Shown one piece after another: positions 5,865 to 45,340 of a stretch of 64,000 nucleotides of DNA. This stretch comes from Nitrospirota bacterium. GTDB lineage: Bacteria; Nitrospirota; UBA9217. The position numbers and the translations under genes are program-made. The first letter of the stretch is position 1. Each line of letters opens with the position of its first letter. The stretch spans positions 96,001 to 160,000 of the forward strand of contig CAVTRN010000002.1 in assembly GCA_963737155.1 (NCBI GenBank), given 5' to 3'. Under the pieces are notes generated by a model that saw only the letters and a program-made list of their open reading frames with translations, did no database searches and was not told the origin of the DNA.

Positions 5865-5917
5865 GACTGTAACTTTATGAGTTTAGAGAGATGGAAACTA
5901 TAACAACTTCAGGAAGC
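5865..5917 (+). repeat. CACCTAC-family repeat, distal left arm only (no core)
   Basis: GTAACTTTAT...ATGGAAACT...CAGGAAG matches the distal left arm of the copies at 18.6, 33.9, 40.9 and 45.1 kb. Confidence 0.55.
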
Positions 5918-6046
5918 ATTAAGCTATAAATATTATATCTTTCGTCATGCGATTTTCATGCCGTATTTAGCAAGAGTCCAGAGTGAACGGCTGATTTGAT
6001 ACAGCGTACCGTACTTTCTGTAAAGCACTGCGACGGACTGCGTACA

Positions 6047-6613
6047 TTATTTCATTACAAACAGGGTAAAGGTCTGGTCAGGCAGAAAGTCGAAGGATGC
6101 TTCTGTGATGTAGCTAGCCTTTTCCATCTCCCGTATGATAACTTCAGGGATCGTATGATGGCCAAGGAGGGAGACAAAACCAAAGCCCTTTTTCTTATGT
6201 TCGATGATCGCAACTTTGCCACCCGGCTTGAGATGTCTTTTGAGCTTGGCGAAAAAGTCAGCCGGCTCTAGCAGATGGTGAAACACGTTCCTAGCGAAGA
6301 CTAGGTCGAGGCCTGCTTCAGGCAAGTCTATTTTACCGTCGGCAGCGAGTATGAACGTGATGTTGCCAAGACCCGTATGCTCAGCTTGACGCCTGATGAA
6401 ATCCAGGTACTTCTTTTTGATGTCAACAGCGTAGACCTGTCCGGTCTTTGCTGCTCGAGTTGCAAAGGCAAGCGTGAAATATCCTCCCCCTGACCCGATG
6501 TCTGCAATCGCCTGCCCGTTCCGGATATGAAGTTGTTCGAGAATTTCCTCTGGTCTGCTTCTGGGAGAGGATGCCTCCCGGTTCAGCATTTTCAAAAAGA
6601 ACGACGTAAACAT
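6047..6613 (-). CDS. Class I SAM-dependent methyltransferase
   Basis: IADIGSGGGYF motif I, VYAVDI, LKPGGKV. ATG at 6613 preferred over 6667. Confidence 0.88.
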   Translation of the reverse strand: MFTSFFLKMLNREASSPRSRPEEILEQLHIRNGQAIADIGSGGGYFTLAFATRAAKTGQVYAVDIKKKYLDFIRRQAEHTGLGNITFILAADGKIDLPEAGLDLVFARNVFHHLLEPADFFAKLKRHLKPGGKVAIIEHKKKGFGFVSLLGHHTIPEVIIREMEKASYITEASFDFLPDQTFTLFVMK

Positions 6614-6746
6614 TGCACAGCTCCTCACGATGCGGCTTAACTTATGATGCCGTCTGCCCTGGCTCATGACTTGCAGATTCTAGAGTGAAATAAGCGCTAA
6701 ATGTTTCGACTAATAATTCTTACTACCACAATATCTGGCGTTCATC

Positions 6747-6785
6747 GTCTTCACCTACAATCATGTATCAGCATTGACAATATTT
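6747..6785 (+). repeat. CACCTAC-family repeat (core 6752-6758 plus right arm)
   Basis: GTCTTCACCTAC-AATCA-TGTATCAGCATTGAC. Confidence 0.65.
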
Positions 6786-6937
6786 CAATGAAGGATACTG
6801 GCTGAAAAATACATAAGTAAAAGAATTGGCCGTAGTAATTATTTATCTAGGGTTTGTTGAGCACTTTGGGCTGCGGCGTCAGCGTATCGGGAAACAGCCC
6901 GAGGATGTCCAAAGAGAACAACGGGTCGTCTCTGCGC

Positions 6938-7684
6938 TTATGCAAGCCGCTCCAGAAGCCAGTTGGAGACCCGCCGGTAATCATGGGCCCCGTTCGAGCT
7001 CGACCAATACATCACCGCCGGCAGTCCGCTGCTTGGTGCTTCGGCGAGCGCCACGTTCTCGCGAACCGCAGGTCCGATGATGCCGCCTGGCACAAGGTTT
7101 CCCATCATTGCAAGAAACTCTTCGTGGATCCGCCGCCGTGCCTGGGCCCTGCATGGAATAATACCGAGGATGGCGAGAGCCGGATTCTGCGCTCTGAATG
7201 CATTCACGGTTTGGATCATCTGGTTCAATCCCTGATATGAGAGAAAGTTGGCCTCCACGGGGATGACGACATGGGAACTGACCTGTAAGGCATTCATAGT
7301 GAGCACACTAACACTGGGAGGACAGTCGATAATGATGAAGTCCCAGTCTCCGTTCGTGCACGCAAGGCACTGCATCAGAAGCTTGCTTCCGATGGATCCG
7401 GAAAATCTCTGCGTCGCTTCTGCAAGCACATGTCCTGACGGAACGAGATCCACACCCGGTGTCTTGGTTGGTAGAATGGGCAGGGCGCTCGTGGTCTGTA
7501 AGGCCTGGAGAAGAGCGCTGCCGTCGTCAGCTATTCCCAGGGATATGCTCGCGTTACCCTGGGGGTCGAAATCAATGATGAGCACTTTCTTTCCTATCTC
7601 CCCCCAGCATGCCGCAATGTTCACTGCCGAGGTGGTTTTCCCAACGCCGCCTTTGTGATTCATAATTGAGACAACTTGCTTCAT
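6938..7684 (-). CDS. ParA/Soj family ATPase with no adjacent parB
   Basis: Deviant Walker A KGGVGKTT, DFDPQGN, IIDCPPS. Confidence 0.92.
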   Translation of the reverse strand: MKQVVSIMNHKGGVGKTTSAVNIAACWGEIGKKVLIIDFDPQGNASISLGIADDGSALLQALQTTSALPILPTKTPGVDLVPSGHVLAEATQRFSGSIGSKLLMQCLACTNGDWDFIIIDCPPSVSVLTMNALQVSSHVVIPVEANFLSYQGLNQMIQTVNAFRAQNPALAILGIIPCRAQARRRIHEEFLAMMGNLVPGGIIGPAVRENVALAEAPSSGLPAVMYWSSSNGAHDYRRVSNWLLERLA

Positions 7685-7935
7685 ACACCCTCCGTAATAA
7701 AAGTCACCGAATGAACTAAAGATCCATCTTGCGGGCTGAATGCTCTTCCTATGTTCGCTTTTTCCAGCCTCCTAACTGAACGTCAAAATTTTCTCTAGAT
7801 ATACCGTTAACCATCATTGTGATCAATCCTTGTGAACATGAGAGAACGGCAAAAACATCGTTCTGAGAGGGTCGAGTTCCACCGTTAAAAGTGTGAAGTC
7901 CGCCATTTAGAATAATACTTGTCGTATTTAGAACG

Positions 7936-7964
7936 ACTATATGCCTGATATAAAGAGATGTCAA
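7936..7964 (-). promoter_or_regulatory. Sigma70-like promoter upstream of parA
   Basis: TTGACA-17-TATAGT; related sequence at 40748-40776. Confidence 0.6.
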
Positions 7965-8065
7965 CTATATGGGTGTGCGATCCCCGCGAAGGGGTATTTT
8001 CGGGGTGGCCGCTAAGAGTTTCCCGTAATTCTTCATCTATTCTATAGAACATGAAGTGCTAGATA

Positions 8066-8128
8066 CACCTATAGCTTGCACCGGCGTTGACTAAAAATAA
8101 ATGCAGATTACCACATGTAACTTACACC
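8066..8128 (+). repeat. CACCTAC-family repeat, degenerate core plus right arm
   Basis: CACCTA-TAGCTTGCACCGGCGTTGAC (compare 25018, 29474) and ACCACATGTAACTTACACC, identical at 25769-25787. Confidence 0.6.
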
Positions 8129-9052: not shown

Positions 9053-9089
9053 AATATGTCTCCAGATTAAGTAAGATAATTGTAAGACA

Positions 9090-9864: not shown

Positions 9865-10065
9865 AAGTTAATGATAGCACGGGGGTCTATAACGGGCAAG
9901 GGAAAGGCAAAGGGGTTGATGTGACCCTTGCATATTCCAATGGGATTGAACACTCATTCTGATCGTGTTCTGACGGCAATTCCGATCTACTTCGGACATT
10001 CAATACGAATTGCGGTAGTACATACTTCAATCCGAATATTTGCATAGTTCCGCAGTGGTTTAAAA

Positions 10066-10120
10066 GCTTGGCTTCACCTACAATCATTGAATGTCAACAT
10101 TGTGACAAGGGTGAAGATTG
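10066..10120 (+). repeat. CACCTAC-family repeat (core 10075-10081 plus right arm)
   Basis: CTTGGCTTCACCTACAATCATTGAATGTCAACATTGTGACAAGGGTGAAGA is nearly identical to 18709-18759. Confidence 0.8.
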
Positions 10121-10224
10121 TCAGATTGTAACTCACATTAGCAAGGGGACTTAACTTGTAACTTTTACGGCTTTCAGCATACTTCCAAAACGCGGATAAT
10201 ACTGCAAAGGCAAATATCGTCTGT

Positions 10225-10806
10225 CTACTGAACAGTAAAGGTTGCAGATTTCATAAGATTGCCTTTGTCGTCCAAGACATAAACCCTCCACTCGCCCTTC
10301 ATACCGTTGATCTTCTTGCTGACCCATGTCCGGAACCTCGGATAAGGCTTGATGGCAAGAGGTATTTTGTCCATCTCGTTTTGGCCGAGCATCCACACTA
10401 CGTAAACGGTGGTTTCCGTTTTTACATATTTAAACTCAAGATAGCAATACACCTTCTCCTGATTAGCTGGATACATCGTTCCTATGTCTAGCGGTGTCCG
10501 ATCCATCACGCCAGCGCCGATTTCCATCCGCAAAATTGTGAGGTTCCGAGCAGGAGCCGGGGCATGGGCGGTCCCTGTAGTCGTCCTGATCGGCACTACC
10601 GTCGACCGCGGAGCAGGAGCCGGGGCATGGGCAGTCCCTGTAGTCGTCGTGATCGGCACTACCGTCGACCGCAGAGCAGAAGCCGGGGCACTGGCAGTCC
10701 CTGTAGTCGTCGTGGTCGGCACTACCGTCGCACGACGTACTGGTGAGACCGTTACACATGCTGAAAAAAGCATTAGAACAATGCCAAGGACTATGGGTTT
10801 TCCCAT
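10225..10806 (-). CDS. Lipoprotein with Thr/Pro-rich linker and C-terminal DUF2914-like domain
   Basis: Lipobox-like FSAC; C-terminal VYCY...V.VVW...FRTWVSK...GEWRV.VLD. Confidence 0.7.
   Translation of the reverse strand: MGKPIVLGIVLMLFSACVTVSPVRRATVVPTTTTTGTASAPASALRSTVVPITTTTGTAHAPAPAPRSTVVPIRTTTGTAHAPAPARNLTILRMEIGAGVMDRTPLDIGTMYPANQEKVYCYLEFKYVKTETTVYVVWMLGQNEMDKIPLAIKPYPRFRTWVSKKINGMKGEWRVYVLDDKGNLMKSATFTVQ
10548..10730. repeat. Three tandem 63-bp coding repeats (21-aa Thr/Pro/Ala unit)
   Basis: Units start at 10548, 10611 and 10674; protein unit STVVPITTTTGTAHAPAPAPR. Confidence 0.9.
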
Positions 10807-15197: not shown

Positions 15198-15743
15198 AAG
15201 GCCTCCGGAAATGTTGGCTTTAAGTCGAAAAGACAAAAAATAACTATGTAGAACATTAACACAGTGAATGAGGGATGTAAACAGTATTTGGGGGTCGGGC
15301 AATAGCTATTGATGGATGTAATTGCGTGTTATTCAAGATGTATTCTACAATTTCAAAGAGATGCAATCGTCGCGGATTTCAGGAAGATTTTTTGCCGGAA
15401 GGACCGTATCATAACATCCATAATCCAAACGGAATGTTTCACCATCCTCTTAACAGGCCTTGCGGCTTACATCTACAAGCATGCACTGCCAATATCTTGA
15501 CGATGCAAAGAATACTAAGTAGTATCTTGCATTGAAAGGGTGTGAAAATGTTACAGCGTTTTAAAATGCTAAAGGCGAATTATTTCTTGTCGAGAATTGT
15601 ATCTTTTGTGGGCAGCCGGCGCGGAGTCTTGCGGCACAAATAACTCACTCCGTAATAGCATAATATAAAGAGCTGATTTCCACCTTTTTCATCTCCAACT
15701 ACCCGCGTTCGACATGGCCAAGTGTACCATGCCTCTAAGTCAT

Positions 15744-17147: not shown

Positions 17148-17388
17148 GAATTTTAAAACCCGCCGGCATTGCTATAATGTGCGCCTACGTATCAAATATA
17201 CTCTATTAATTATGAGTTGCAACTTGCAGCAGGGCAAGAGAATGTTCAAGTGAAGATTTGAGGAAGGTTTATTAACCGAATGATTCAACCGATATCTTCC
17301 AAATTCTTATAAGTCACCGTTCCTACTGTGTACACCTACATGATTACAAGAACACAATCGGAACAAGACACTATTCTAACAATGGTCT

Positions 17389-18357
17389 TTACGTATCTGT
17401 TATGCGAATATCAGCACAGCGATCATTTGATGTGTCCGGACATTCCACGACAGGTGATTGCCGGCCCCGTTCAATTAGAAGACGAACTACATCCGGACGT
17501 GCGTAATGTCCTGCACAGTCGGTTATAATTTTTCTGTCCGTGATGCGGTCAAAGTCCAGTTCGGACGTTAATAGGACCTCTTCTTCTGGAGCCGGGCCTG
17601 CCAGAAGTTCCCCGAACGGGGCAACGATACACGAGTGCCCTCCGCCGATGCTGAACTTGCCGGTCCCACCATGTTGCGAAAGCCAATCGAGAATGTCTTG
17701 GGTCATGACGGATGAAGCCGAAGCGACAAACGCTTGGGATTGAAATGCGTAGTTACGCGCTGCTGCTTCGACGACATTACTGATCCAATGCATTCCACCA
17801 GGCCACAAGGCAAAGTGAATTTCCTCGCGCTGAGATTGCATTGCATAACAAAATAACGCATTTGAATGCTCGTAGCAGATGAGACCACCCACGCGACCCG
17901 CAGACGTATCGAAGGCGTAAAGATCCGAGCCGTCCCCACGGCCCCAGACCATGCGCTCGTGAAATGTCGGCATAAGTTTGCGCCTCCTGCCGACCAATGC
18001 ACCTTCTGGAGAAAAGAACAATTGCGAGTTGTACATAGTTCCGCCACCCCGCTCGCTAACGCCAATCACAACGCCGCATCGGGCGTCGCGAGCAGCGGCG
18101 GCTAGGCCTTCGGTTTCAGCGCCCGGGACTATAATAGAATTTTCGAAATATTCCCGGTTAATCGCACCGGTGGCCATACTGGGCATGGTCATTAGCCAAT
18201 AGGGATAGCCCGGTATAACTGTTTCTGGAAACACTACCCATTGAGCACCTTCACTGCCAGCACGTGCTATCCAAGCACAAGCTTTCTTTACAGTTGCCTC
18301 TCGGTTAAGAAAGATGGGTGCCACCTGCGCCACCGCAACTTTGATTCTTGTTCCCAT
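17389..18357 (-). CDS. Nitrilase (carbon-nitrogen hydrolase family)
   Basis: Catalytic E-K-C in FPET, RRKLMPT, ICYEH; GHYARPD. ATG at 18357. Confidence 0.92.
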   Translation of the reverse strand: MGTRIKVAVAQVAPIFLNREATVKKACAWIARAGSEGAQWVVFPETVIPGYPYWLMTMPSMATGAINREYFENSIIVPGAETEGLAAAARDARCGVVIGVSERGGGTMYNSQLFFSPEGALVGRRRKLMPTFHERMVWGRGDGSDLYAFDTSAGRVGGLICYEHSNALFCYAMQSQREEIHFALWPGGMHWISNVVEAAARNYAFQSQAFVASASSVMTQDILDWLSQHGGTGKFSIGGGHSCIVAPFGELLAGPAPEEEVLLTSELDFDRITDRKIITDCAGHYARPDVVRLLIERGRQSPVVECPDTSNDRCADIRITDT

Positions 18358-18544: not shown

Positions 18545-18765
18545 GATACCGACTGGATATTTTTGGGGTTATCGAATTCAGGTTGTAACTTTATATGTGT
18601 AGAAAAATGGAAACTTCACCTGGTAGGAAGGAGTTGCTGACAGAGAACTTTATCACAAAATGCAATGATATAAAATGAATTCTGCACCTTCGACAATATT
18701 ATATGAAACTTGGCTTCACCTACTATCATTGAATGTCAATATTGTGACAATGGTGAAGAATGCGG
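18545..18765 (+). repeat. CACCTAC-family repeat, full copy (core 18717-18723)
   Basis: ATGGAAACT..GGAAG..AACTTTATCACAAAATGCAATGATATAAAATGAATTCTGCACCTTCG..ATTATATGAAACTTGGCTTCACCTAC plus right arm; lies directly 3' of the kinase gene. Confidence 0.88.
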
Positions 18766-18774
18766 GTTGAAATA

Positions 18775-21786: not shown

Positions 21787-22099
21787 ACAGTCAAAAAAAT
21801 CGAGTATAAGAATAGCGTCATATTATTGAAAATGTATCGGAAAGTAACATATTTCATAGGCTTGCTATCTGTATTTCGAGTTGTATTCTGTCATTTCCAA
21901 TAGATGATACGTATGCCTCCTTAATAAGCATTGCTATTAAACTTATCGTCACAATCTTGATTAACTTAAGTGAGCAATATGATTTGTTAAGGGAATTTTA
22001 AGGGTAAGTTAACGAACACGGCCTGATAATGGAAGTTGCTAAGAATAGAAGCAGCACAGATAAAGGAAGGGGGGGCATTGTATGCTTCAATGTCAATTG

Positions 22100-25050: not shown

Positions 25051-25079
25051 TCTATCCAGACTACTGGTTGATAATTGCA

Positions 25080-29340: not shown

Positions 29341-29399
29341 GAGAACGCATCACCTTTTCATATTTTCATAATGGTTTTTGTATTTATCACGTTACGAAG

Positions 29400-29505
29400 A
29401 TCAGGAAGAACAGTTTACTAAAAACTTCAAACGGAAATATTCACTCGAGTGGCGATTCTGGTTCTCTGAGGTCCACCTACTAGCTTGCACAGAAGATTGA
29501 GAAAA
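29400..29505 (+). repeat. CACCTAC-family repeat (core 29474-29480), 3' of the nuclease-transposase gene
   Basis: CAGGAAG ... TCCACCTAC-TAGCT-TGCAC; right arm as at 8071 and 25025. Confidence 0.65.
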
Positions 29506-29648
29506 GCGGTTGCAATCTTCTGGTTGAAGTTTGCGTCAAGGTTCACAGACTATTTGCATGGGCTAATACATCAACATAAGGGATATAAAGAGAACAATTT
29601 GTTTATCGTTACGGATACATTTTAAATAGTTGGATTGGTCCGATCCCA

Positions 29649-32444
29649 TTAACTCACGGAAGTCTTGGGGCCCTTCGTTATCTCCACTAAATTTTTTAAG
29701 CCGACAGGGGATGATATTCTTATACTTTTTGCAGCTTTGAACTTGTCGATGTCGATCTCTTCAGATAAAAAGAACTTGAGAAGCGATTTGTCTTGGAACC
29801 TACAAGTTTGTGCGATTCCAAGCAATAGCAGGTAATGTAGGGCAACTGTTTTGAAAAACGTTCCGGAAATCTTTCTTTGAACAGCAAGGTGCCTGAGGGC
29901 ATTTTCTGCCGTGTTGTTGTGCCAAGGAATACCATCTAACTCGAGAAAGGTGAAAAGGCTCTCTCTATAGCGGTGAAAACGCTTTTGATATTTAGCAACT
30001 AGTTCACAATTAATGGGTGCATTATCGATGTTTTTCCGATAGAATCGGTCGACAGACTTGCTAAATTTGCAAAGATGCCGTCTCTTTAGCCCGTATTTCT
30101 CCTCTGCCTTAAAGATAGGGACTAGCAGATCCTTAACCTCGCTGACAAATGCCTCATATACTTGGTTATATGGATTACTCCAAAGATCATCATTGAGATC
30201 TCGTATGAGGTGAACTAAACATTTTTGTTGTGCGCAAGTGACAGCATCGTAGCCTCCATAGAAATCGGAAATCAACACACCCTTATAGTTAGACAAAAAC
30301 TCATGGACAATGGTCGACTCTCGCGTCTCAGTCATTCTGAAGACAACATGCTTTCCATCGGTAAACACCCAGGCATAATGATCAGTTCCCTGAATATTGA
30401 TTCGCGTCTCGTCAGCGTGAACAAAAGGACTTTCCATGATGCGCTGAATCGTCAACTTCTCAGTCGTAGTATAGTATTGGGCAAAGTCATTGATGAAGCT
30501 GACCAAACTCCCTTCACTTGCGCTCTCATGAAATATCTCCTCCATTTCTTGGATGATAATGCGATAAGGAAGGCGCAGAACTATTCTGGCATGGATTACC
30601 CAAGCCTTGAAAGCATGCCCAAAAAGTTGCGTCCCGAGTGATGAAATCTTCGGTGGCGGATAATGTTTGCCACACTTCAGACAGTAACCTTGGGTGCCAA
30701 TATATTTCGTCGCAGTTCTTCTACAACCGGCTTTCGTGAAGCGCAGGCTGATAATGAATTTCTCTGCAATTCTCTCCGATTTCTCAAGGGATTGCCCCTT
30801 GTGTTTTGGACAGGTTCTCTTCGGTGCCACCCGAATGACAGTATCGGCCCTTGAAGTAACTTTTCTCCGATATCCCTGATGACCTTTCTGTCCGCCCCTT
30901 TTTTTCCCCTCAGTCTCTGTGGTGTTATATCCTGGACGAATGCTTACTCTATTTTTATTGTAGTCGGCATGGGCATATACAATGATATTATGCAATCCCC
31001 TGTGAATCTGATGGCCGAGTTCAGTAGTGTGCCGTTTTGGCTGATCGGCAAAATCAATATCACTGTATGTATCTGCACTTGCGCTGATCCTTGAGAGTTC
31101 CTCTAGCAAGAACCAGAGTGCCTCGCAGTCCTCTTTATTGTAAGTTACCAATATCTCCTTATGTTGGCTTTCCCCGGCCTCCCAGAGATGTCGCCATACT
31201 AGACTTTGGAGTCCAGACGCATTAGGCATGGTCCAAGATGCGCCGACGAGTTTCCCTATATCCTTTAGATTATTTGACCTGGTTGGGAAATACACTTTGC
31301 CGTAGATACTGGCATTCAGGTTGACAAATCGTTTTTTGAGCGCCTCACAATCAGTCTGATATATTTGCGCCATTGCATCAATCGATCGTGGTTCATAACT
31401 CCCATAGTGATATATCGGCGCTTCAGGATATCTGTTGATCTTTTCAAGAGCTTCAGCCCAGATCCGCCGCTCGTCTTCAGGCGAATTAGCCCAAAAGGAA
31501 TGATAGGAGCGGTTCCCCTGCTCATTGATCAGGAGACCGATTAAGTAGTGGAAGTTTTGGTCTGGGATCCCTTCGATATCGAGAAACAGCTCTACCTCGC
31601 GCCTGAGTATTGTAGGGCGTTCTTGAATATATGTTATCCCCGTTCTGAGTGCTAATGCTTGCAACTCAACTTTGAAAGGTACCGGGGCTCTGGCTCGTCG
31701 CTTCCGGCTACGCCTTGGCTTGAAGGCATAGGAGAGTTGCGTAACTGTAAAGATGCCTTTCTTGTGATACTTCAGAATTGCTTTTGGCGTGACTCGATCC
31801 AGTAAACTGAGGTCGTCAGCCTTTTCTGCTTGCACTAAACAGCTTTTCCTAAATTGGCAAGTCGAGCAATGTTTGTTTAATATCACTGGAGGTGATATTG
31901 CTGGTGAACTGCCTGTCCATTGCCTCAATGCATTGATCATCGGCATCAATGTTCGGCTCGCGGATGCCATTCCTACTTTATGAGCCTGACCATCCGCGCA
32001 AACAATTGTTCCAGACGAAGGCAACTTAAACTGCAATTGACCGAGCACATATCCAACAAACAAAAGGGAGAGCTTCTGCTCTTTCGTAACCTGATGTGTA
32101 CCCACAATGCTTATCGGCTCGTAACTATAACTGCCGAGAGATGAGGTACGATGCACTTTCGTGAGCACGTCACAGCCAGCTTTTAAATCGTGCAACTTGA
32201 GTGCGACGTCCAGAAGAACATTCTCGCCGCTTGAGAGAGCAGCAGCGTTCCCGGAGCTCAGGCTAGGATGTTCTTTCTCGATAAGATTCAAATATTTAAT
32301 TCGGCTTTGATGTGCTTGTTCTTCAAGTAAATGCCAATACTCATGGGGTATTCCCTGATCTTCCAAGCAAAGAAGAAGAAATGCTTTTCGAGAGCATTGC
32401 GAGTATGCAACAACAACTTCAGGGGTAATAATTTTCGTTTCCAT
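29649..32444 (-). CDS. RecB/Cas4-like (TM0106-type) nuclease - RNase H-like - zinc finger - IS66 DDE transposase fusion (931 aa)
   Basis: YSQC ... CSTCQFRKSC four-Cys pattern; LDIEGIPD...YNKEDC; CPKH...CLKC; HADET, ISDFYGGY, QKCLVHLIRD, WHNNTAENALR IS66 core. Confidence 0.88.
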   Translation of the reverse strand: METKIITPEVVVAYSQCSRKAFLLLCLEDQGIPHEYWHLLEEQAHQSRIKYLNLIEKEHPSLSSGNAAALSSGENVLLDVALKLHDLKAGCDVLTKVHRTSSLGSYSYEPISIVGTHQVTKEQKLSLLFVGYVLGQLQFKLPSSGTIVCADGQAHKVGMASASRTLMPMINALRQWTGSSPAISPPVILNKHCSTCQFRKSCLVQAEKADDLSLLDRVTPKAILKYHKKGIFTVTQLSYAFKPRRSRKRRARAPVPFKVELQALALRTGITYIQERPTILRREVELFLDIEGIPDQNFHYLIGLLINEQGNRSYHSFWANSPEDERRIWAEALEKINRYPEAPIYHYGSYEPRSIDAMAQIYQTDCEALKKRFVNLNASIYGKVYFPTRSNNLKDIGKLVGASWTMPNASGLQSLVWRHLWEAGESQHKEILVTYNKEDCEALWFLLEELSRISASADTYSDIDFADQPKRHTTELGHQIHRGLHNIIVYAHADYNKNRVSIRPGYNTTETEGKKRGGQKGHQGYRRKVTSRADTVIRVAPKRTCPKHKGQSLEKSERIAEKFIISLRFTKAGCRRTATKYIGTQGYCLKCGKHYPPPKISSLGTQLFGHAFKAWVIHARIVLRLPYRIIIQEMEEIFHESASEGSLVSFINDFAQYYTTTEKLTIQRIMESPFVHADETRINIQGTDHYAWVFTDGKHVVFRMTETRESTIVHEFLSNYKGVLISDFYGGYDAVTCAQQKCLVHLIRDLNDDLWSNPYNQVYEAFVSEVKDLLVPIFKAEEKYGLKRRHLCKFSKSVDRFYRKNIDNAPINCELVAKYQKRFHRYRESLFTFLELDGIPWHNNTAENALRHLAVQRKISGTFFKTVALHYLLLLGIAQTCRFQDKSLLKFFLSEEIDIDKFKAAKSIRISSPVGLKNLVEITKGPKTSVS

Positions 32445-33834: not shown

Positions 33835-34030
33835 CGATATCAATTGGATATTTTATAGGAATGAGGCTGTTGAATACAAGTTCAAACTTTAAATGTTGCA
33901 AAGAATGGAAACTTCAAAAGCTTCAGGAAGTTCTTGTTGCAAGGAGAACCATGTCATAATATCCATGATTCAAACAGAAGATAGCACCTTCTTAATAAAT
34001 CTGATCATCCGGCCTTCACCTACTCTGCAA
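33835..34030 (+). repeat. CACCTAC-family repeat, long left arm (core 34017-34023)
   Basis: TTGGATATTTT..GAATACAAGTT..ATGGAAACT..CAGGAAG..AACCATGTCATAATATCCATGATTCAAACAGAAGATAGCACCTTC..CTTCACCTAC. Confidence 0.8.
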
Positions 34031-34295
34031 TTTCAGCAGGACGCAACAACCAGCGAATATCTGGTTGTAATCTGCGACAACGGACGGGTTTTGTCCATCG
34101 GCCACGCGATGCGTGAACGGAGATGGATTTGTTCGAGGTTTTTAGGCGCTATTCCCATCCGTGTAATATTATTGCCTTCGGAAAGAGAACGTGCAGGCCA
34201 ACTACCCGGCCTGCCCGTGATGTGTTTAAATGATCCTGTCTCGATTCATCAGATGACGTCGGTTGTATCCTTATCCAACCAAAATGCAACCACAC

Positions 34296-34685: not shown

Positions 34686-36380
34686 CTATTTCCCAACGGT
34701 GATGATTTGACTGGGTCCATATTCCGTCGGGACCGTTGGATTGTTCATGAGTGTGAGCGCCCCGGTCGTCTGGTCGATCGTGAACTGAAAGATGGACATA
34801 TTATTGATAGCTGGACCGCACGAGCCGTCGTCGCCACTGGTCGCGTAGGCGTACTTGCCCGAGGCTTCCACCGTGATGACATCGACGCTCGGCAGCGAGA
34901 CCGTGGGCGGAGTCATTGCTGTGAGCGCCCCAGTGTTCTGGTCGATCGTGAACTGAGCGATACCCGGCGGGTCAAGGACCGTCGCATAGGCGAACCTGCC
35001 CAAGGGGTCGACCGTGATGGACGCTGCCCCATAACCCCCCGTGGCCGTGGCGAGGGTGACCGTAGGCGCGGACATGGGTGTGAGCGCTCCAGTGTTCTGG
35101 TCGATATTGTACTGAAAGATGTAGCCGTATTCATAGTCCGCAACGTAGGCATACTTACCCTTGGTGGGTTCGATCGTGATGGCGTAGGGCTCCGAGTAGG
35201 CGGGTCCCGCGGCGACCGACAGCGTGGGCGCGGATGTGAGCGCCCCAGTGTTCTGGTCGATATTGTACTGGGTGATGGAGCCACCATAACCACCATTATT
35301 GGTTGGCACGTAGGCCCACTTGCCCGAGGGGTGGACCGTAATGGAATCGGGATACGACGACCCCGACCCCGCCGCGACGGTGGGCGTGGTCATTGATGTG
35401 AGCGATCCATCCGTGCCGATCGTGTACTGATTGATGTCAAGCCTTTCAATGTTTAGCACGTAGGCCCAGGGGCCCGAGGGGTTGACCACAATGCTGGCAG
35501 GATAGTACAACTGGCCGACAGGCACATTCGGCCCCACCAAGATAGTAGGCGTGGACATGGATGTGAGCGACCCTTCCGCGCCGATCGTGAACTGAGAGAC
35601 GGTCTCACTTATTTGGTTCGATACGTAGCTATACTTACCCAGGGGGTCAACCGCGATGTTTCGGGGATCGTTCCCTCCTGTAGTGACCGAGGGCGTGAAC
35701 ATGGGGGTGAGCGCTCCATTCGGGCCGATCCAGTACTGAGAGACGCTGCCTCCATAACCGCACTGATTGTTTGCCGAGTAGGCATAGCCCCCTTCCCAGA
35801 ATGCATACAGGGTGCCATTTGTTGCGCTCTTCGTGAAGGTCTGCCCCGGCGCATAGATTATTCCGGATCCGTCGGCCGTCGTCTGCCATCCCACGAAGGT
35901 ATATCCGGTATATACGAGACTGCCTGAATTCCCGAGCACTGTGACGGTCTCCCCAGTCACATAGGAGTTCGAGTCAATCGGGACGCTGCCGCTGGTGGCG
36001 CCGTTGCCGTTATAAGTCACGGCATTGCCACCGGTGCCGTTTGCGGTCCATATCGCGTACAGTGTAACATTGGCCGTACCCATCGTGACGCTCGACATAG
36101 AGGTCGTGCCGTTAGCCAGCGTGTTCCAACCCGAAAAGGTATACCCGGTTTTCACGAGGATGCCCGGATTCCCGAGCACCGTGACCATCTGCCCCTGCGA
36201 ATAGTTATTTGGGTCGCTCGGGACGCTGCCGCCGGTAGCCCCGTTACCGTTATAAGTCACGGTGTACGTGGTGGAAGTTGGGCTTGTACTGCCACCACCT
36301 CCTCCACCACCGCAGGCAGCCGCTATCAATGATAAACACAAGACTAAGGCCACAAAAATACCGATATGTCTCTTTTCCAT
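34686..36380 (-). CDS. Lipoprotein with InlB B-repeat-like domains and a lactonase-type beta-propeller
   Basis: Lipobox IAAC-GGGG; two YNGNGAT.G..P...GYTF.GW repeats; repeated P.SI.V.P.GK.AYV / QY.IDQ.TGALT blades. Confidence 0.82.
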   Translation of the reverse strand: MEKRHIGIFVALVLCLSLIAAACGGGGGGGSTSPTSTTYTVTYNGNGATGGSVPSDPNNYSQGQMVTVLGNPGILVKTGYTFSGWNTLANGTTSMSSVTMGTANVTLYAIWTANGTGGNAVTYNGNGATSGSVPIDSNSYVTGETVTVLGNSGSLVYTGYTFVGWQTTADGSGIIYAPGQTFTKSATNGTLYAFWEGGYAYSANNQCGYGGSVSQYWIGPNGALTPMFTPSVTTGGNDPRNIAVDPLGKYSYVSNQISETVSQFTIGAEGSLTSMSTPTILVGPNVPVGQLYYPASIVVNPSGPWAYVLNIERLDINQYTIGTDGSLTSMTTPTVAAGSGSSYPDSITVHPSGKWAYVPTNNGGYGGSITQYNIDQNTGALTSAPTLSVAAGPAYSEPYAITIEPTKGKYAYVADYEYGYIFQYNIDQNTGALTPMSAPTVTLATATGGYGAASITVDPLGRFAYATVLDPPGIAQFTIDQNTGALTAMTPPTVSLPSVDVITVEASGKYAYATSGDDGSCGPAINNMSIFQFTIDQTTGALTLMNNPTVPTEYGPSQIITVGK

Positions 36381-36754
36381 AATAACTACCCCCTTTCTTT
36401 ATGAGACAAAGCCGAATTGAGAATTCCCTTGTTTCTCTCTTGAAAAAAAATGTTGCGATATGTTAAATTGACAAAGTGTTAGTTTTCTGTTGAAATCAAC
36501 ACTTTTACCGAAGAGCTCATCGCGGCAAAATACATATAAAAGGTGCACTACTTACTTCACTGATGTTTACGCTAATTTATCAAATGATTGAAAGAGGGGC
36601 TCCTCAGCAGAATCTGTTGATAATAAAATAAGCATTTAAGGAAAAGTCTCGCATTCCGGCATAGCCATTATGCTAATTTTGATATATATGGGTAGAGCAT
36701 GGGGTTAGACTTCCCCATTAAAGTATAAGAAATATTTTTTTCAAGATTACCCAA

Positions 36755-36900
36755 AATAGAAACCTCCTGCTAAAAATTAGTTTATACGGGAACTAAATTC
36801 AAGCGTCAGGAGGTTTCTATGAACTGTATTGATGATAGCAGACTTGAGCAGCTTCTTCAACTGAAGAAAGAGATTCGTGGTTCAGATCAGGATTTGATTG
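36755..36900 (+). pseudogene. Left end and N-terminal fragment of an IS110-like transposase
   Basis: Hairpin ATAGAAACCTCCTG...CAGGAGGTTTCTAT covering the RBS, then MNCIDDSRLEQLLQLKKEIRGSDQDLI, which resembles deltaproteobacterial IS110 N-termini (from memory). Confidence 0.5.
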
Positions 36901-37324
36901 TTTCTTACAATGCAGATGATATATCTCACTGTGACATTTATTAGCCTAATCGACAGTGGTGATATCTTTCAATCACGCGTAATTACAGAACAAATACGGA
37001 TTTATTATCTAATAAATATCCACAGATTCAGCGTAGGAGGCGAAAGAGGTTACTCAGCCTATGGGTAATTGTAAATACCCCTGTCAGGGTATTTTTAGGG
37101 TATGCTTATCTCGTCACTTCATCACAATCAACTACTTATGGAGGACACAGTTGATTTTTTTGATGATTCAAATGGTCTATTTCAGAAATCGGTGAAGGTC
37201 CTGCCTTATTTGACATCCCGAAAAGGAATGCAACTGATCACAGGGAGAGGAAGTCAATCCTTGACTATTAGATTGAAGAATACGACATGATAAGTGCAAT
37301 TTCCAATAAGTGCAACTGTTACCA

Positions 37325-37428
37325 GCTCCAGGAAGTTGATGATGAGAGAAAACTTTACCACGAAATGCAATGATTCAAAATGAATTCTGCACCTCCGTTA
37401 ATTTTATGCAAAACTCAACTCCACCTAA
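37325..37428 (+). repeat. CACCTAC-family repeat, left arm plus degenerate core (37422-37428)
   Basis: CAGGAAG..AACTTTACCACGAAATGCAATGATTCAAAATGAATTCTGCACCTCCG..TTATGCAAAACTCAACTCCACCTA. Confidence 0.82.
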
Positions 37429-37654
37429 ACACGTCCTAAATTTATGAGATTAAAGGAAACTGCGCCTATTTGCAAGAGGTTAAGGAATTGGCGGTAAAGA
37501 TATGCGTCCGGGGCAGTCATGCAACTCTTGCCGTGAGTATTGCTGAAACAAAAACAGGCACCTGCTTAGCGAAAGGAACCATCATCCAGCAAGAAAAAGA
37601 ACACAAGAATTGAAATTACTATCTTTTGGATAAAGTCTTTCATTCTATTGACCT

Positions 37655-40575: not shown

Positions 40576-40610
40576 GTTTGATTTCCACGATAAGTCATAT
40601 CAAAACTCTT

Positions 40611-40688
40611 CGGAATTAACCAGGGGATGACTAGCCCCCCTCGTTAATTCCGAAAATCCGGTATTGGCGAGCCCCCTAGATAATACCG
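40611..40688. repeat. Two adjacent hairpins (REP-like)
   Basis: CGGAATTAAC-..GGGG..CCCC..-GTTAATTCCG and CGGTATT...AATACCG. Confidence 0.5.
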
Positions 40689-40747
40689 AATTTGTGATGT
40701 TATCTAGTTTAGCAATGATTATGCCAGGTCAATTTACGGTCAAAATG

Positions 40748-40776
40748 ACTATATGCCTGATCAAATAAGATGTCAA
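40748..40776 (-). promoter_or_regulatory. Sigma70-like promoter upstream of the HNH gene
   Basis: TTGACA-17-TATAGT; related to 7936-7964. Confidence 0.55.
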
Positions 40777-40869
40777 TAAGAACGGGGGATCGATTACGAT
40801 GGGGATGATCACGATGAGATCTATTAAGGGGCTGTCAACAAATACGGAATGAAGTTGATACTGTTTCAA

Positions 40870-41090
40870 TAAATGGAAACTCCAACACTCCAGGAAGCAG
40901 TCGTTGACGGATAACTTTATCACAAAATGCTATGATACACATTGATTTCTGCACCTTCGCTAAAATTATACGAAACTCGACTTCACCTACAATCACGCAA
41001 TGCCAATGTTTTGACGATGGCAAGGGATTCTGGGTGTATCCTGCAAGCAGAAATATCCACCTTTGGGTGGATCCATTTTTGGGGAACCCT
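40870..41090 (+). repeat. CACCTAC-family repeat, full copy (core 40984-40990)
   Basis: Aligns with 45118-45340 on both sides of the core. Confidence 0.9.
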
Positions 41091-41508
41091 CACTGTGACA
41101 TACTTGTAATATTCACACCTCCTCGTTCGAGGGGGTAGTAATAATGAATTATTATAATACCTCGCAAAATATTTCATCCATACGAAACTACAATTCATTA
41201 TATTACCTAACTGGTTTAATAACCTCATGATTACGTGAACAAGAAGAGTGGAACCGTAAAAATGGAACCGTAAAAAAGGAATGTTGTAAGGCTTTGATCA
41301 TCGAAGAGGGAAATATATTATGGTAGACGAAATTGTCTGGGAGAAAAGTCTCAAAAATGCCTTGGACCTTTCAAGACAGGAAAGCAAACTTGTGCTTGCT
41401 GCTTTTTTCGGCTCGACCTGCGAAGCATGCATTAAAATGAAAACATGCACGTTAATCACTCAACGTGTTCAGGACTATATAAAATTACATTTTATCCCAA
41501 TTAAATAT

Positions 41509-43392
41509 GATGGTCTCGTAATAAGTCGATAGTCGTGATTCAGCTAAAATAAGTCATGTGAAACATCATATAACCATTGCAGCACAAGGGGTTTTGTGAT
41601 ACACAATAGCATCACAATTCGCAATCAAGGAGCCAGAATGATCCACATCAAGGATCACAAAACCCCCGACATGTTCGACCCCTTTCCTTTTCTGGGACCC
41701 AAACGCAAACAGCGCATCGAGGAGTCCTGGGCAAAGGTTTTTCGAGAGCACATTCTTCCCACGTTGCCGGTAGAGAAGATCTTTTCCAAATACGATCCGG
41801 TTTTCGGAGCACCGACCAAGGAACTCTATGCCATGATCGGTCTCATGGTCATCCAACAGATGCACAACCTGACCGACGAGGAAGCCGTGGACCAGTTTGC
41901 CTACAATCTCCAATGGCAATACGCCCTGAATATCACCAGGACGGACGATGCCGCCGCTTATGTCAGCCCCAAGACCCTCTGGAACATGCGCGATCTTCTG
42001 ATCGAACGGAACCTCTACCAGGCTATTTTTGAAGAAGTCGCGACGAAGCTTGCCGAGGTGTTCAAAGTCGATGTCGCCAAGCAGCGTTTCGACTCGGTCC
42101 ATATCTTCTCCAATATGCGACACCTGGGCCGGCTCGGCTTGTTCGTAAAGACCATCAAGAAGTTCCTGGTGAACCTCAAGCGCCACCATAAAGACCTCTA
42201 CGAATCATTAGAGACAACTATCACCGACCGGTACATGACCAAACAGGGTGAGGCCGTTTTCTCCATGGTGAAACCCTCGGAATCGATAAATACGCTCGCA
42301 ACGCTGGCCAACGACGTGTTCAGTCTGGTGGAGCAGTTCGCGGGAAATGAGCCCGTTACCACCATGAATACCTATCAGCTCCTTGCCCGGCTGCTTAAAG
42401 AGCAATGCATCGTGGAGCGCGTTGATACGCATACAACCCAGGTCTCGGTCAAAGCCAACAAGGACGTTCCTTCCGATTCCCTGCAAAACCCTTCCGACCC
42501 CGACGCCGGGTATGACGGTCATAAAGGCAAGGGCTACCAGGTGCAGGTTGCCGAAAGCTACAGTACTTCCGAGGATACCAACACCCTGAACTTGATCACC
42601 AGCGTGATCGTAGAACCTGCCCACAAGAGCGATGCCCATGCCCTGGTCCCGCTCATCGAATCCACCACGGAGCTTGGGCTGAAGCCTGAAGAAATTGCTG
42701 CCGACTCACTCTACGGTAGCGATGAAAACTGCGAGAAGGCAAAGACCTTGGGAATCGAGGTCGTTTCTCCGGTTATGGGCAAACTTGACGAAAACAGCGT
42801 GCCGCTCACGGCATTCACCATGAACAGCGAAAACGAAATCACTTTCTGCCCCGAGGGATGCGCTCCGGAGAAAACCCGGAGCAAAGACAACAACCACACT
42901 GCGCTCTTCTCAAAGAAAACGTGCCGCAGTTGTTCCCGGAAGAAAACGTGTCCGACAATGCCCGGTAAAAAAGGTCGCTATCTTCGGTACGACGATAAAG
43001 CAATCCGGCTGGCACAGCGGCGGGCTCAGGAAGACACTCCCGAGTTCCGGGATAGGTACCGCTTCCGGGCAGGGGTCGAAGGAACCATGTCTCAGCTTGA
43101 CCGATTGACCGGGGTCAAGAACCTCCGCGTCCGAGGATTGTCCGCAGTGAGCTTCGCCGCGTACCTGAAGGCGGCGGGAATCAACATTATCCGGGCGGCG
43201 GCGTTCCGCAAGCGAGAAATCGAAGGGGAACCAGTGCCTAGAGCCGCCCTTTCGATTCTATCTTGTGCTGTCAAAGAACGTTTACAGCTTGTTTCAGATA
43301 CAATCAGGCGTTGGGGTTATTTCCAACGGCTGGATATCCGGCTTGCGGCGTGATAAGCCGCAATACGATAATTTACTTCTTACGAATCCATC
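41509..43392 (+). mobile_element. IS1182-like insertion sequence
   Basis: IRs GATGGTCTCGTAATAAGT / ACTTCTTACGAATCCATC; 6-bp TSD AAATAT at 41503-41508 and 43393-43398. Confidence 0.9.
41638..43353 (+). CDS. DDE transposase (IS1182/IS5-like)
   Basis: G.P.KEL N-terminal domain, QRFDSVH, SDPDAGY, ADSLYG, Y..RAGVEG.MS. Confidence 0.88.
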   Translation: MIHIKDHKTPDMFDPFPFLGPKRKQRIEESWAKVFREHILPTLPVEKIFSKYDPVFGAPTKELYAMIGLMVIQQMHNLTDEEAVDQFAYNLQWQYALNITRTDDAAAYVSPKTLWNMRDLLIERNLYQAIFEEVATKLAEVFKVDVAKQRFDSVHIFSNMRHLGRLGLFVKTIKKFLVNLKRHHKDLYESLETTITDRYMTKQGEAVFSMVKPSESINTLATLANDVFSLVEQFAGNEPVTTMNTYQLLARLLKEQCIVERVDTHTTQVSVKANKDVPSDSLQNPSDPDAGYDGHKGKGYQVQVAESYSTSEDTNTLNLITSVIVEPAHKSDAHALVPLIESTTELGLKPEEIAADSLYGSDENCEKAKTLGIEVVSPVMGKLDENSVPLTAFTMNSENEITFCPEGCAPEKTRSKDNNHTALFSKKTCRSCSRKKTCPTMPGKKGRYLRYDDKAIRLAQRRAQEDTPEFRDRYRFRAGVEGTMSQLDRLTGVKNLRVRGLSAVSFAAYLKAAGINIIRAAAFRKREIEGEPVPRAALSILSCAVKERLQLVSDTIRRWGYFQRLDIRLAA

Positions 43393-44082
43393 AAATATGA
43401 ATCGGGCGCAGATTCAGATCAGTTTATGAGATTTTGTGTAACGGCGAAACCCGCTGTAATTGTGCTTGATTCTGAAGGTAATGAAATATTCAGAAAGATA
43501 GGATATTTTGAGCCTGATGTAATTATAAAAAAACTCGAAATGGCAAGAAAAAAGGCTGCCCATAGAGCAGCAAAGGTCATGCATATTATAAATAGAAGTG
43601 TAAATTAGGGGACGTCAGTTTTTTTGAGAAAATAGATATCGCAAAGAAACAACGATGGGACTTCCATCACGAAATATTGAAGTCTAACCGAGCCCGACAA
43701 TCATATGGACCACCTACTTGTATTCGTTTTTAATTTCGTAGTGTAAGCAGAATATCTGCCCACTATGCTTTATGCGAAGAGTACAGGATGGTCATCAGAC
43801 TACAAGTTACAGACGACGTCCTTCGACTCATCCAAAGCTAGGATCTCTTTGCAGAGCACCTCAATTGTCGTAAAGTATCTCAGGTTTCTGTTGAATGACA
43901 ATCGCACAATATCTCCAGTATGCAGTACTAATGGACACTTTCTTTTCCGGCTTCCTTGACATACCGTTCAATCAGTGTCAGACTTTAGTTATCTCTCCCA
44001 CAGTAGCATCTTCGCATCCAACTCGATCAGCATCCCCTTAAATTTACGAAGACTTCCGGTGGGTAGCGATGGGAGGTATAAA

Positions 44083-44964
44083 ATGAAAACACTGGTCATA
44101 GGTGGAACAGGTATGGTAGGAAGTATGGTGGTAGCCGGCCTGCTGAAGCAGCGCGAGTCAGTACGGGTATTGAGTCATTCCCGGGATAAACTGGAAAAAC
44201 TGCCCAGCGGCGTGGAAGGGGCAAGGGCGGACCTTGATGATCCCCACTCGCTCGCTGCTGCATTTGACGGCATAGACAGAGTGTTTCTGCTGAATGCAGT
44301 CGGACCGAACGAGACCGATGAAGGACTCCTTGCCGTGTCTGCAGCAAAGGCAGCCAAGGTTAAGAAGATCGTCTATATGTCGGTCGCCATGCCGGAAGGG
44401 TCGGAAAGAATACCGCACTTCCGAAGCAAACTCCCGGTGGAGAAGGCCATCAAGGAGTCAGGGATCGCCTATACGATCCTTCGGCCAAACAACTTCTTCC
44501 AAAACGACCTGTGGTTGAAGTCCGCCATCATGCAGTACAGCCTTTATCCTCTGCCCATCGGTAAGAAAGGACTGAACCGGGTCGATGTGCGCGACATCGC
44601 CGACTGTGCGATTAACGCTCTTATGGAATCAGGACACGAGGGTCGGACGTATGAAATCCACGGATCCGATACCCTGACCGGCGAAGGGATCGCCAAGGCC
44701 TACACAAAGCATCTGGGACGTGAGATTCGCTATAGCGGGGAGGACCTCAATACCTGGGCAGAAAAATCAAAAGGCATGATGCCGGAGTTCCTGATTGCCG
44801 ATATGCGTATCATGTATCAGTTCTTCCAGGATAACGGAATGATCGCATCAAAGGATGACCTCGAAAAGACGGAGAAGCTTCTTGGACGCAAGCCTCGGAG
44901 CTTTGACGATTTCGTCAAGGAGACCACCTTGGAGTGGAAGAACAAGGTGGGAAAGGCCGCGTAA
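44083..44964 (+). CDS. NmrA-family NAD(P)H-binding protein
   Basis: GGTGMVG Rossmann motif, SGIAYTILRPN.F, VDVRDIA; GGAGG RBS before ATG 44083. Confidence 0.9.
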   Translation: MKTLVIGGTGMVGSMVVAGLLKQRESVRVLSHSRDKLEKLPSGVEGARADLDDPHSLAAAFDGIDRVFLLNAVGPNETDEGLLAVSAAKAAKVKKIVYMSVAMPEGSERIPHFRSKLPVEKAIKESGIAYTILRPNNFFQNDLWLKSAIMQYSLYPLPIGKKGLNRVDVRDIADCAINALMESGHEGRTYEIHGSDTLTGEGIAKAYTKHLGREIRYSGEDLNTWAEKSKGMMPEFLIADMRIMYQFFQDNGMIASKDDLEKTEKLLGRKPRSFDDFVKETTLEWKNKVGKAA

Positions 44965-44973
44965 AGAACACGA

Positions 44974-45008
44974 CGCCGGATGCTGCCTCGATGCATCCGG
45001 CATTTTAT
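44974..45008 (+). terminator. Rho-independent terminator
   Basis: GCCGGATGC-loop-GCATCCGGC followed by ATTTTATT. Confidence 0.65.
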
Positions 45009-45084
45009 TGACTCGTCTATCTAAACTCCCGCGAACATCCATTTCTGAACGTTCAGCCGTAACCGCTCTACGGGTACAGGCTAT

Positions 45085-45340
45085 CGAATACAGATTGTAA
45101 ATTTATGTGCTTCACAGAATGGGGAAACTCTAACTAGTAACAGGAAAAAGTCGCTTACAGAAAACTTTATCACAAAATGCAATGATACAAAATGAATATT
45201 GCACCCTCGCTAATATTATAGGAAACTCGACTTCACCTACAATCTTGCATTGCCAATGTTTTGACGATGGTAAAGAATTCTGTCTGTATCATGCAATCAA
45301 ATTTTTCCATTTTTAGATGAATCAAGTTTAGTCGACCCTA
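45085..45340 (+). repeat. CACCTAC-family repeat, full copy (core 45234-45240)
   Basis: AACTTTATCACAAAATGCAATGATACAAAATGAATATTGCACCCTCGCTAATATTATAGGAAACTCGACTTCACCTAC-AATCT-TGCATTGCCAATGTTTTGACGATGG. Confidence 0.9.

Follow-up and report, generated by a model that had tools for sequence, protein, structure and literature searches.

A polar ~210-bp intergenic repeat borders gene cassettes in a genus of Nitrospirota and holds IS110/IS1111-family elements at two apparent exchange points

To our knowledge, integrons are the only well-understood system in which unrelated genes are lined up as cassettes at a fixed recombination point. Clusters of attC sites without an integrase are known as CALINs, and the promoter-early stem-loop (PeSL) modules of T4-type phages are thought to act via homologous recombination between copies. 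Here, a stretch of 64,000 nucleotides from a Nitrospirota bacterium (GTDB lineage UBA9217; assembly GCA_963737155.1, contig CAVTRN010000002.1, positions 96,001 to 160,000 of the forward strand), hereafter the window, was analyzed for a family of co-oriented intergenic repeats that are built around the heptamer CACCTAC and lie between unrelated gene blocks. Insertion sequences (IS) of the IS110/IS1111 family offer another point of comparison, as elements of the IS1111 type target attC and repetitive extragenic palindromic (REP) sites, and their seekRNAs, from the non-coding region downstream of the gene, match both target strands (available text of PMC11187229). For ISPpu10, the accessible part of a further report describes two copies in two REPs that moved the intervening 227.6 kb to a distant locus as an IS-cargo-IS unit, as well as precise excision of the element as a circle (10.64898/2026.03.19.712850).

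In the orientation used by an initial annotation of this DNA, the repeat is ~210 bp long and consists of an A arm of ~65 bp, a CAGGAAG box, a B arm of ~85 bp, the core CACCTAC, and a C part of ~55 bp. A direct-repeat search, together with an alignment of the positions named in that annotation, gave a common stretch of ~200 bp around most of them. An iterated nhmmer profile, seeded with six good copies, was run over the source genome (G000; 4.84 Mb, two contigs) and the first 20 relatives' loci, yielding 14 matches in the window (all on the plus strand), 123 in G000, and 85 in the relatives' loci. In the following, G001, G003, G010, and G011 denote relatives, C numbers contigs, and L numbers the loci compared.

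The comparison of copies shows, as read from where homologous blocks begin and end, exchange of DNA at two fixed points, one inside the 7-bp core and the other where the A and B arms meet (AGCTT^CAGGAAG). Flanks were compared for 114 copies with a well-placed core, drawn from G000, from 400 kb and 360 kb of G011 and G001, respectively, and from other loci. Among the 6441 pairs, four shared the distal left flank, seven the distal right flank, and none both (two, seven, and none in an earlier copy set). Left-shared blocks, 99–99.8% identical, run through CACCTAC and collapse at most 3 bases past the core (G000 C1:820098 vs. C2:198197) or just after CACCTAC (G001 C1:124840 vs. C2:39857). Right-shared blocks, 82–94% identical, begin at the core, and the B arms beside them are unrelated or barely related in six pairs (C1:236946 vs. 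L033; G011 C3:764558 vs. G003 L034:14372; C2:250020 vs. L033; C2:2985306 vs. L026; C2:254725 vs. C2:2022172; C2:2348407 vs. L037). Copies that exchange with nothing but the core in common argue against ordinary homologous recombination, and the core is very probably a site of non-homologous, site-specific exchange.

A 1.12-kb core-to-core cassette carrying a RibD_C gene is present at two loci of G001 with 99% identity and with flanks that differ on both sides; the duplicated block takes in the final 7 bases of one copy and everything up to the end of the copy that follows. Within the window, the ParA block at 6902-8072, 97% identical to G011, ends at the core of copy 8066. Each cassette extends from a core to the core that follows it, and the repeat is the border between gene cassettes. 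The initial annotation had taken the copies for recombination junctions, which is borne out by blocks of 82–99.8% identity that end within a few bases of CACCTAC and by the duplication of a complete cassette. The scanned blocks encode ordinary proteins (radical SAM/B12-binding, DUF1499, DUF1801, peroxidase, SRPBCC, PAS kinase, ParA), and none of the 10 exchanged blocks overlaps an IS110 homologue. In contigs of soil metagenome runs no cassette-level joint at a core was found, uncovered parts being uninformative; in these contigs, which are short pieces, empty sites were seen only for an IS5-like element and for a 220-bp fragment of the element IS-X, both described below.

Blocks were also expected to be bounded exactly at the core, which holds for one class of ends, while a second class lies at the CAGGAAG box. 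Among 89 block ends located at most 400 nt from a core, which are not all independent and in which BLAST runs some way into conserved flanks, 24 fall at -45 to +15 from the core (6.8 expected if uniform) and 15 at -100 to -70, around the box (3.4 expected). Similarity in three right-shared pairs passes through B and stops at the box, and the 99.8%-identical duplicate in G000 is bounded by the core on one side and by the box on the other. Two G000 copies (C1:820092-821838 and C2:197112-198203) bear the same insertion of ~1 kb at model positions 137-143, in the B arm; the C1 copy has an additional 653 bp, and what the two share extends from the CAGGAAG box to the core. In contigs from two metagenome runs, position 33928, in a CAGGAAG box, is joined back by 4509 to 29420 inside another copy, which would fit a circle, a tandem duplication, or a hybrid copy elsewhere; this joint has 34 bases on its short side and 14 unmatched letters in between, may belong to another locus or organism, and was given no weight.

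Three lineages of IS110/IS1111-family elements are shown by their junctions to insert exactly at both exchange points, IS-X and IS-Z in the core and IS-Y at the box. IS-X of G011 is 1.76 kb long and encodes a 435-amino-acid (aa) protein with the Pfam domains DEDD_Tnp_IS110 and Transposase_20. All 10 copies in 400 kb of G011 are placed as CACCTAC/IS/AC-AAG in a single orientation, with different B arms to the left and different C parts to the right. In the 3' non-coding region of IS-X, the stretch TCACCTACAA crosses the insertion point and TAGGTGA lies a further 78 nt on, so that the core is matched on both of its strands (10 nt and 7 nt); chance matches of at least 10 nt were estimated at ~0.03. 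The two-strand match resembles the guide signature of a seekRNA or bridge RNA and may represent one. When the right end of IS-X is joined to its left end, TTGACA-17-TATATA is obtained (by eye), at the level of sequence a circle-junction promoter. There are 25 matches to IS-X in G011 and only degraded copies in G000. IS-Y is represented in G000 by two copies that are 96.6% alike, with the family confirmed by Pfam; both are inserted at AGCTT^CAGGAAG, and G000 has intact IS-Y. The window itself holds remains of two elements:

36680 to 36899, minus strand: fragment of IS-X, 220 bp (5' end and gene start), recognized by sequence match; skipped (36679 to 36900) in contigs of two metagenome runs
49121 to 50544 (limits approximate), minus strand: IS-Z, a broken IS110-family element in the core of copy 48985, recognized by Pfam and by its junctions

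The gene of IS-Z is in pieces, open reading frames (ORFs) 50185-50592 and 49426-50166, and in G011 and G010 the homologous blocks have their beginning at 49108-49114. The block that starts at the core of copy 48985 was at first taken as a cassette; it is this IS110-family element and was removed from the cassette evidence.

Following the precedent of ISPpu10, a pair of IS110-type elements, each seated in a repeat of its own, would carry the intervening DNA to a third repeat as an IS-cargo-IS unit; in an alternative route, IS copies would recombine with each other. The elements would later leave precisely, giving B'-core-C...gene...A-B-core-C' with one repeat copy gained, and repeated rounds would build co-oriented arrays. 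Insertion of an IS-cargo-IS unit followed by the loss of both IS would leave a product that matches the cassette seen in G001. IS110-type recombinases are the likeliest candidate for the engine of the exchange, and we put the chances of their being so at about even. A bolder reading, which we hold only tentatively and consider somewhat doubtful, would be a novel gene-capture platform of integron-like kind, with a 210-bp polar double-stranded site and a 7-bp crossover that gives each cassette an upstream control region, the role of the integrase being played by a guide-RNA-directed IS110/IS1111 recombinase acting in trans or by one of an unrecognized kind.

Several observations weigh against exchange confined to the two points and against IS110-type elements as its engine. 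Certain block ends map to the outer edge of C (+43 to +51), those of the kinase blocks included, or to other places, and the ParA block has its far end 36 nt beyond the stop codon and distant from every core. An IS-cargo-IS unit in the act of moving was not observed, and no cassette still flanked by two IS copies could be paired with an IS-free copy. G000, in which intact IS-X is missing, holds the recent, 99.8%-identical duplicate bounded by core and box. The two guide-like stretches of IS-X pair together in the predicted fold and could be a plain stem, and IS-Y is without a guide-like match of at least 8 nt. Of the 35 IS110-family loci, only 15 have a profile match within 700 nt, and several IS-Z-like copies in G000 are far from any copy of the repeat. 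Finally, the conserved B arm and the strict orientation relative to genes both lie beyond what the IS110 model explains.

In the window, the heptamer CACCTAC occurs 12 times on the plus strand and never on the minus strand (3.95 expected from shuffles; none of 100 shuffles reached 12), while over the whole genome the two strands are unbiased (61/57 in C1, 108/112 in C2). Two of the 12 exact heptamers, at 43711 and 52149, have no family context within 40 bases on either side. The initial annotation had reported about a dozen non-coding copies on the same strand, and this stands, with the 14 profile matches and at least three diverged copies beyond them all lying on the plus strand. Of the cores that it listed, those at 6752 and 8066 belong to copies outside the reach of the profile, in which the alignment nevertheless shows the core and the motifs to its right; the one at 8066 reads CACCTAT, the one at 37422 reads CACCTAA, and the one near 25726 is degenerate, while the copies at 15331-15527, ~17333, and 48985-49122 had been missed. 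The copies, including those outside the reach of the profile, are as follows:

5852 to 5918, plus strand: A arm only (model 1-67), without core, left end of the window array; nhmmer and alignment
6700 to 6810, plus strand: diverged copy, core CACCTAC at 6752-6758; alignment, outside the reach of the profile
7990 to 8100, plus strand: diverged copy, core variant CACCTAT at 8066-8072, where the ParA block shared with G011 (97%) ends; alignment, outside the reach of the profile
10022 to 10132, plus strand: copy (model 99-207), core at 10075-10081; nhmmer
15331 to 15527, plus strand: copy, core variant CATCTAC at 15470-15476; nhmmer
17240 to 17390, plus strand: diverged copy, CACCTAC at 17333-17339, with GAGGAAG and a B-like stretch; by eye, outside the reach of the profile
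18568 to 18772, plus strand: full copy, core at 18717-18723; nhmmer
22008 to 22185, plus strand: full copy, core at 22134-22140; nhmmer
23336 to 23447, plus strand: left-hand portion (model 1-113) of a copy that an IS256-like element interrupts; nhmmer
24974 to 25071, plus strand: right part (model 107-204) of the copy split by the IS256-like element, core at 25018-25024; nhmmer
25675 to 25782, plus strand: partial diverged copy (model 99-209), degenerate core near 25726; nhmmer
29390 to 29528, plus strand: copy (model 47-205), core at 29474-29480; nhmmer
33866 to 34069, plus strand: full copy, core at 34017-34023; nhmmer
37274 to 37480, plus strand: copy, core variant CACCTAA at 37422-37428; nhmmer and alignment
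40835 to 41040, plus strand: full copy, core at 40984-40990; nhmmer
45080 to 45291, plus strand: full copy, core at 45234-45240; nhmmer
48985 to 49122, plus strand: A and B arms and left core part (CACCTCC at 49114-49120) of the copy split by IS-Z; nhmmer
50545 to 50600, plus strand: C part of the copy split by IS-Z, with the core remnant TCTAC just before it (50540-50544), marking where the array ends on the right; by eye against other C parts

The IS256-family (Mutator) element that splits one of these copies lies at 23445-24975; 11 more copies are found in G000, with transposases 99.3% identical, and at least nine in G001, with 92–93% identical DNA.

The conserved left arm described by the initial annotation was confirmed, its conservation extending over ~150 bp, and so were the motifs reported to the right of the core, as the logo of the 114 copies gives AA after the core, then TGYA, and then TTGAC in a subset. 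A weak dyad flanks the 7-bp core in the same logo (T at -2, AA at +7/+8). Among ~20 copies from three species the B arm is at least 91% identical, and the C parts of the same set are 20–50% alike. The copies had been described as often lying just 3' of minus-strand genes, which is true of the window; they sit there between co-directional minus-strand genes and are also 5' of the next gene. Along the gene strand, the upstream gene is followed by the C part, GTAGGTG, the B arm, the A arm, in some cases a D module, and the downstream gene, and the biologically meaningful strand of the repeat is probably this one, opposite to the initial orientation. In G000, 76 of the 109 intergenic copies are antisense to both neighbors and four in sense to both, a count that rests on crude, ORF-based gene calls; in this genome, tandem gene pairs pointing one way or the other occur at about the same frequency. 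An orientation linked to replication was also considered and rejected, as the leading strand fits the largest arrays and fails in several others, while gene direction fits far better.

The D module is found 90–190 nt beyond the A arm in some copies, with a near-consensus TTGACA-17-TATAGT in ~7 of 13 D copies, and is in some followed by a sigma-54-like TGGCAT-N5-TTGCT. Three modules were located in the window:

7932 to 7964, minus strand: D module TTGACA-17-TATAGT, promoter-like, between the repeat and ParA; sequence
40744 to 40776, minus strand: D module TTGACA-17-TATAGT, followed by TGGCATAATCATTGCT, sigma-54-like by eye
48905 to 48937, minus strand: D module, weaker copy; sequence

In a contig of a metagenome-assembled genome (L086, CAVWIL010000005.1, 3001-3741), the ParA ORF alone is 93% identical to that of the window; the identity starts ~22 nt before the start codon and stops just past the stop codon. 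Upstream of it lies a standard core-B-A-D copy where the window has a diverged one, the ORF having been swapped almost exactly.

Accretion at one site, as first proposed, does not describe the distribution of the repeat, which in G000 forms 34 clusters and single copies on both strands, neighboring copies sharing their orientation. Co-oriented runs reach 14 copies twice in G000 and 40 copies within 360 kb of G001, which holds 56 copies in all in these 360 kb; long runs also occur in 400 kb of G011, and genomes of the same genus carry dozens of copies per 400 kb. Cassettes in the window measure 0.7–5.4 kb. Among the genomes searched the repeat is, as judged by matches to the family, genus-specific: it was found in 10 of the 14 other genomes of the genus, in one of the 10 from other genera of the family, and in none of the 16 from other families of the phylum. 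Collections of plasmids and phages gave no match to it.

The repeat was compared with known classes of elements. Rfam gave no match at the gathering score in the window and none at E ≤ 1 in 40600-41150, RNAalifold found no consensus structure for 61 copies on either strand, and eight single folds were no better than shuffles (z from -0.59 to +1.66, with RNA rather than DNA parameters); a structured RNA or riboswitch was rejected on these three grounds. Pairs of the attC boxes R'' (RYYYAAC) and R' (GTTRRRY) spaced 40–130 bp apart overlap none of 16 window copies and number three per strand in the whole window, and the integron integrase is absent from G000 (best TIGR02249 score 88.7 bits vs. 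a cut-off of 265). The exclusion of CRISPR and attC made at the outset is upheld, and Rfam families are likewise excluded. What is integron-like is the presence of co-oriented cassettes and of exchange at a fixed point of the site. The short (20–40 nt) imperfect palindrome of REPs, bacterial interspersed mosaic elements (BIMEs), and REP doublets forming hairpins (REPINs) was not found in the repeat, which is ~210 bp long and without a stable fold; Y1_Tnp genes, the type to which the REP-associated RAYT transposases belong (~15 intact in G000, one in G011), are dispersed without a tie to the arrays. No terminal inverted repeats or target duplications were seen in the alignments by eye, without a formal scan of ends, and the window has no tRNA or tmRNA anchors. 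A look-up for expression listed no RNA run that contains this stretch. A small ORF in the arm was rejected by eye, as reading frames differ between copies, and so was a sigma-54 promoter in the C part, where the GG-to-GC spacing is one base short, the proper TGGCAT-N5-TTGCT being confined to some D modules.

Among other explanations, an integron-like platform could possess its own site-specific recombinase (e.g., a tyrosine recombinase with a 7-bp overlap) that recognizes the whole C-core-B-A as double-stranded DNA and moves core-to-core cassettes, the IS110 elements then being parasites of the site. The exchange within an invariant 7-bp core flanked by a weak dyad, the duplicated core-to-core cassette, the co-oriented arrays, the recent events in G000 without intact IS-X, and the two arm-binding-domain integrases that adjoin one array of G000 all speak for such an enzyme, and in size the conserved arms (~150 and ~55 bp) are comparable to a complex att site such as lambda attP. 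However, besides the missing integron integrase, the arm-binding integrases of G000 (E ≤ 1e-20) and its 799-aa tyrosine recombinase were not found in G001 and G011, the most copy-rich genomes, and no tyrosine, serine, or Y1 recombinase was seen tracking the arrays across genomes; the initial annotation had proposed to look for a co-occurring recombinase gene, and none of the candidates tested travels with the repeat. A single enzyme would also leave the pile of block ends at the CAGGAAG box unexplained, the box being another IS110 insertion point, and we consider a dedicated recombinase unlikely.

The strict polarity towards genes and the B arm that is at least 91% identical across species would in turn suit a regulatory intergenic module (promoter, leader, or protein-binding platform) that is copied along with genes, mosaicism arising by homologous or short-homology recombination and ends piling up at the core because B is conserved and C variable. 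Many copies have TTGTAG-16-TATAAT on the gene strand (by eye), ~7 of 13 D copies hold the near-consensus promoter 90–190 nt beyond the A arm, and the ParA ORF alone is 93% identical in a third genome, behind a different repeat copy. Against this, at least six junction pairs have B arms that are unrelated or barely related on one side and more than 90% identity on the other, with no homology spanning the exchange point; the -10-like stretch is only moderately conserved, the best-conserved stretch lying further into B, and a promoter scan neither flags the B arm nor finds promoter-like sites enriched over shuffles. Such a module is, in our view, distinctly improbable as the source of the mosaicism. 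Very improbable indeed is a miniature inverted-repeat transposable element (MITE), a non-autonomous transposon that would insert as a unit between genes and whose ends would be the block ends. The high copy number, intergenic position, and partial copies are what it predicts, the whole element is present or absent behind one kinase gene, and in some pairs blocks end at the outer edge of C; yet a simple insertion keeps the distal flanks and none of the 6441 pairs shares both, the duplicated block of G001 begins with the final 7 bases of a copy and extends to the very end of the following one, and neither terminal inverted repeats nor target duplications (by eye only) nor plasmid or phage matches were seen.

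Recombinase genes were also recorded near and within arrays. The two adjacent arm-binding-domain integrases of G000 (C1:23760-26392, L045; 398 and 426 aa, 69% alike) lie at an array end, the 799-aa protein with a tyrosine-recombinase domain (C2:14939-17338, L095) is near another array, and the truncated repeat copies at C1:22695 and C2:13285 have fragments of the arm-binding type next to them. Multicopy tyrosine recombinases that are not in G000 occur in G011 (313 aa, 11 identical-scoring copies) and in G001 (295 aa, 10 copies; 322 aa, five copies), some of them inside arrays. At 29649-32444 the window encodes a 931-aa protein in which an RNase_H_2 (PF13482) domain is fused to an IS66-type transposase, and a decayed paralogue (474 aa) lies at 3827-5251, with a downstream fragment at ~3335-3682; with only two copies in G000, both in the window, the fusion was discarded as a recombinase partner.

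Other elements of the window include an IS5-like element (DDE_Tnp_1_6, DUF772) of 1890 bp at 41503-43392, which has three identical copies in G000 and an empty site in the population, as 41502 is directly followed by 43393 in contigs from two soil metagenome runs, where 8 bases are compatible with either side. A 277-aa ORF at 1922-2755 matches only positions 1 to 206 of the 490-position Cpn60 profile and looks like a truncated chaperonin gene at the array edge. Repeats within genes were seen at 10548-10736, where three tandem 63-bp units, 84–95% alike, lie inside a DUF2914 gene, and at 34729-35718, where seven repeats of ~160 bp lie inside a beta-propeller/lactonase-like gene with Listeria-Bacteroides repeats.

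Gene blocks of the window recur in relatives at scattered places and without their order being kept. Their identity to the relatives is 81–97%, while the htrA and cpn60 regions are mostly 69–78% identical (87% in one genome); cassette blocks that are 82–99% identical between species, and thereby exceed the identity of htrA and cpn60, suggest gene flow within the genus. The arrays represent a second cassette architecture with an integron-like outcome, in an uncultured soil lineage and for a large share of its accessory genome. It links cassette borders to the IS110/IS1111 elements, whose RNA-guided recombinases are under development as genome-writing tools. If IS110 elements do build the arrays, they would have a natural role beyond self-propagation and would offer natural target/guide pairs for study; if the capture platform were real, natural bridge- or seekRNA recombinases would be building arrays of hundreds of kb and moving ordinary genes between species.

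The literature searched on gene cassettes and integrons of Nitrospirota and on the heptamer does not describe the family, although the supplementary target lists of the ISPpu10 and seekRNA studies may hold comparable repeats. The system first proposed as undescribed may not be wholly so, in view of the IS110 elements at both points and of the IS-cargo-IS precedent of ISPpu10 in the available text of that report. According to the accessible parts of the two sources (PMC11187229, 10.64898/2026.03.19.712850), the REP and attC targets of IS110/IS1111 elements (ISPa11 and ISPpu10 in Pseudomonas REPs, ISKpn4 and ISPst6 in attC) are alike in being multicopy intergenic repeats entered at a fixed position and orientation by DEDD elements, in the short matches of the element's non-coding region to both target strands, and in that an IS-cargo-IS unit between two occupied repeats can move to a third. 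The Nitrospirota repeat differs from them in being ~210 bp long, non-palindromic, without a predicted hairpin, and polar towards genes, and in having two target points and three IS lineages. The foremost difference is the core-to-core gene cassettes that the IS-free genome shows in arrays of tens to hundreds of kb, which are unreported for REPs in the literature searched.

With integrons and CALINs the arrays share co-oriented, unrelated genes including toxin-antitoxin pairs, a conserved separating site, a fixed exchange point, and cassettes in new contexts. Unlike them, they have no IntI, no R''/R' boxes, and no foldable attC, and are located at many sites of the genome; the conserved site is mostly 5' of the cassette gene, whereas that of integrons and CALINs is 3', and the cassettes (0.7–5.4 kb in the window) are larger than those of integrons and seem to carry their own promoter-like sequences. 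The PeSL modules resemble the repeat as intergenic modules that recur with a promoter-like sequence and border swappable accessory genes, while the Nitrospirota repeat is set apart from them by a 7-bp exchange point between otherwise unlike copies and by its place on the chromosome of a host bacterium instead of a phage.

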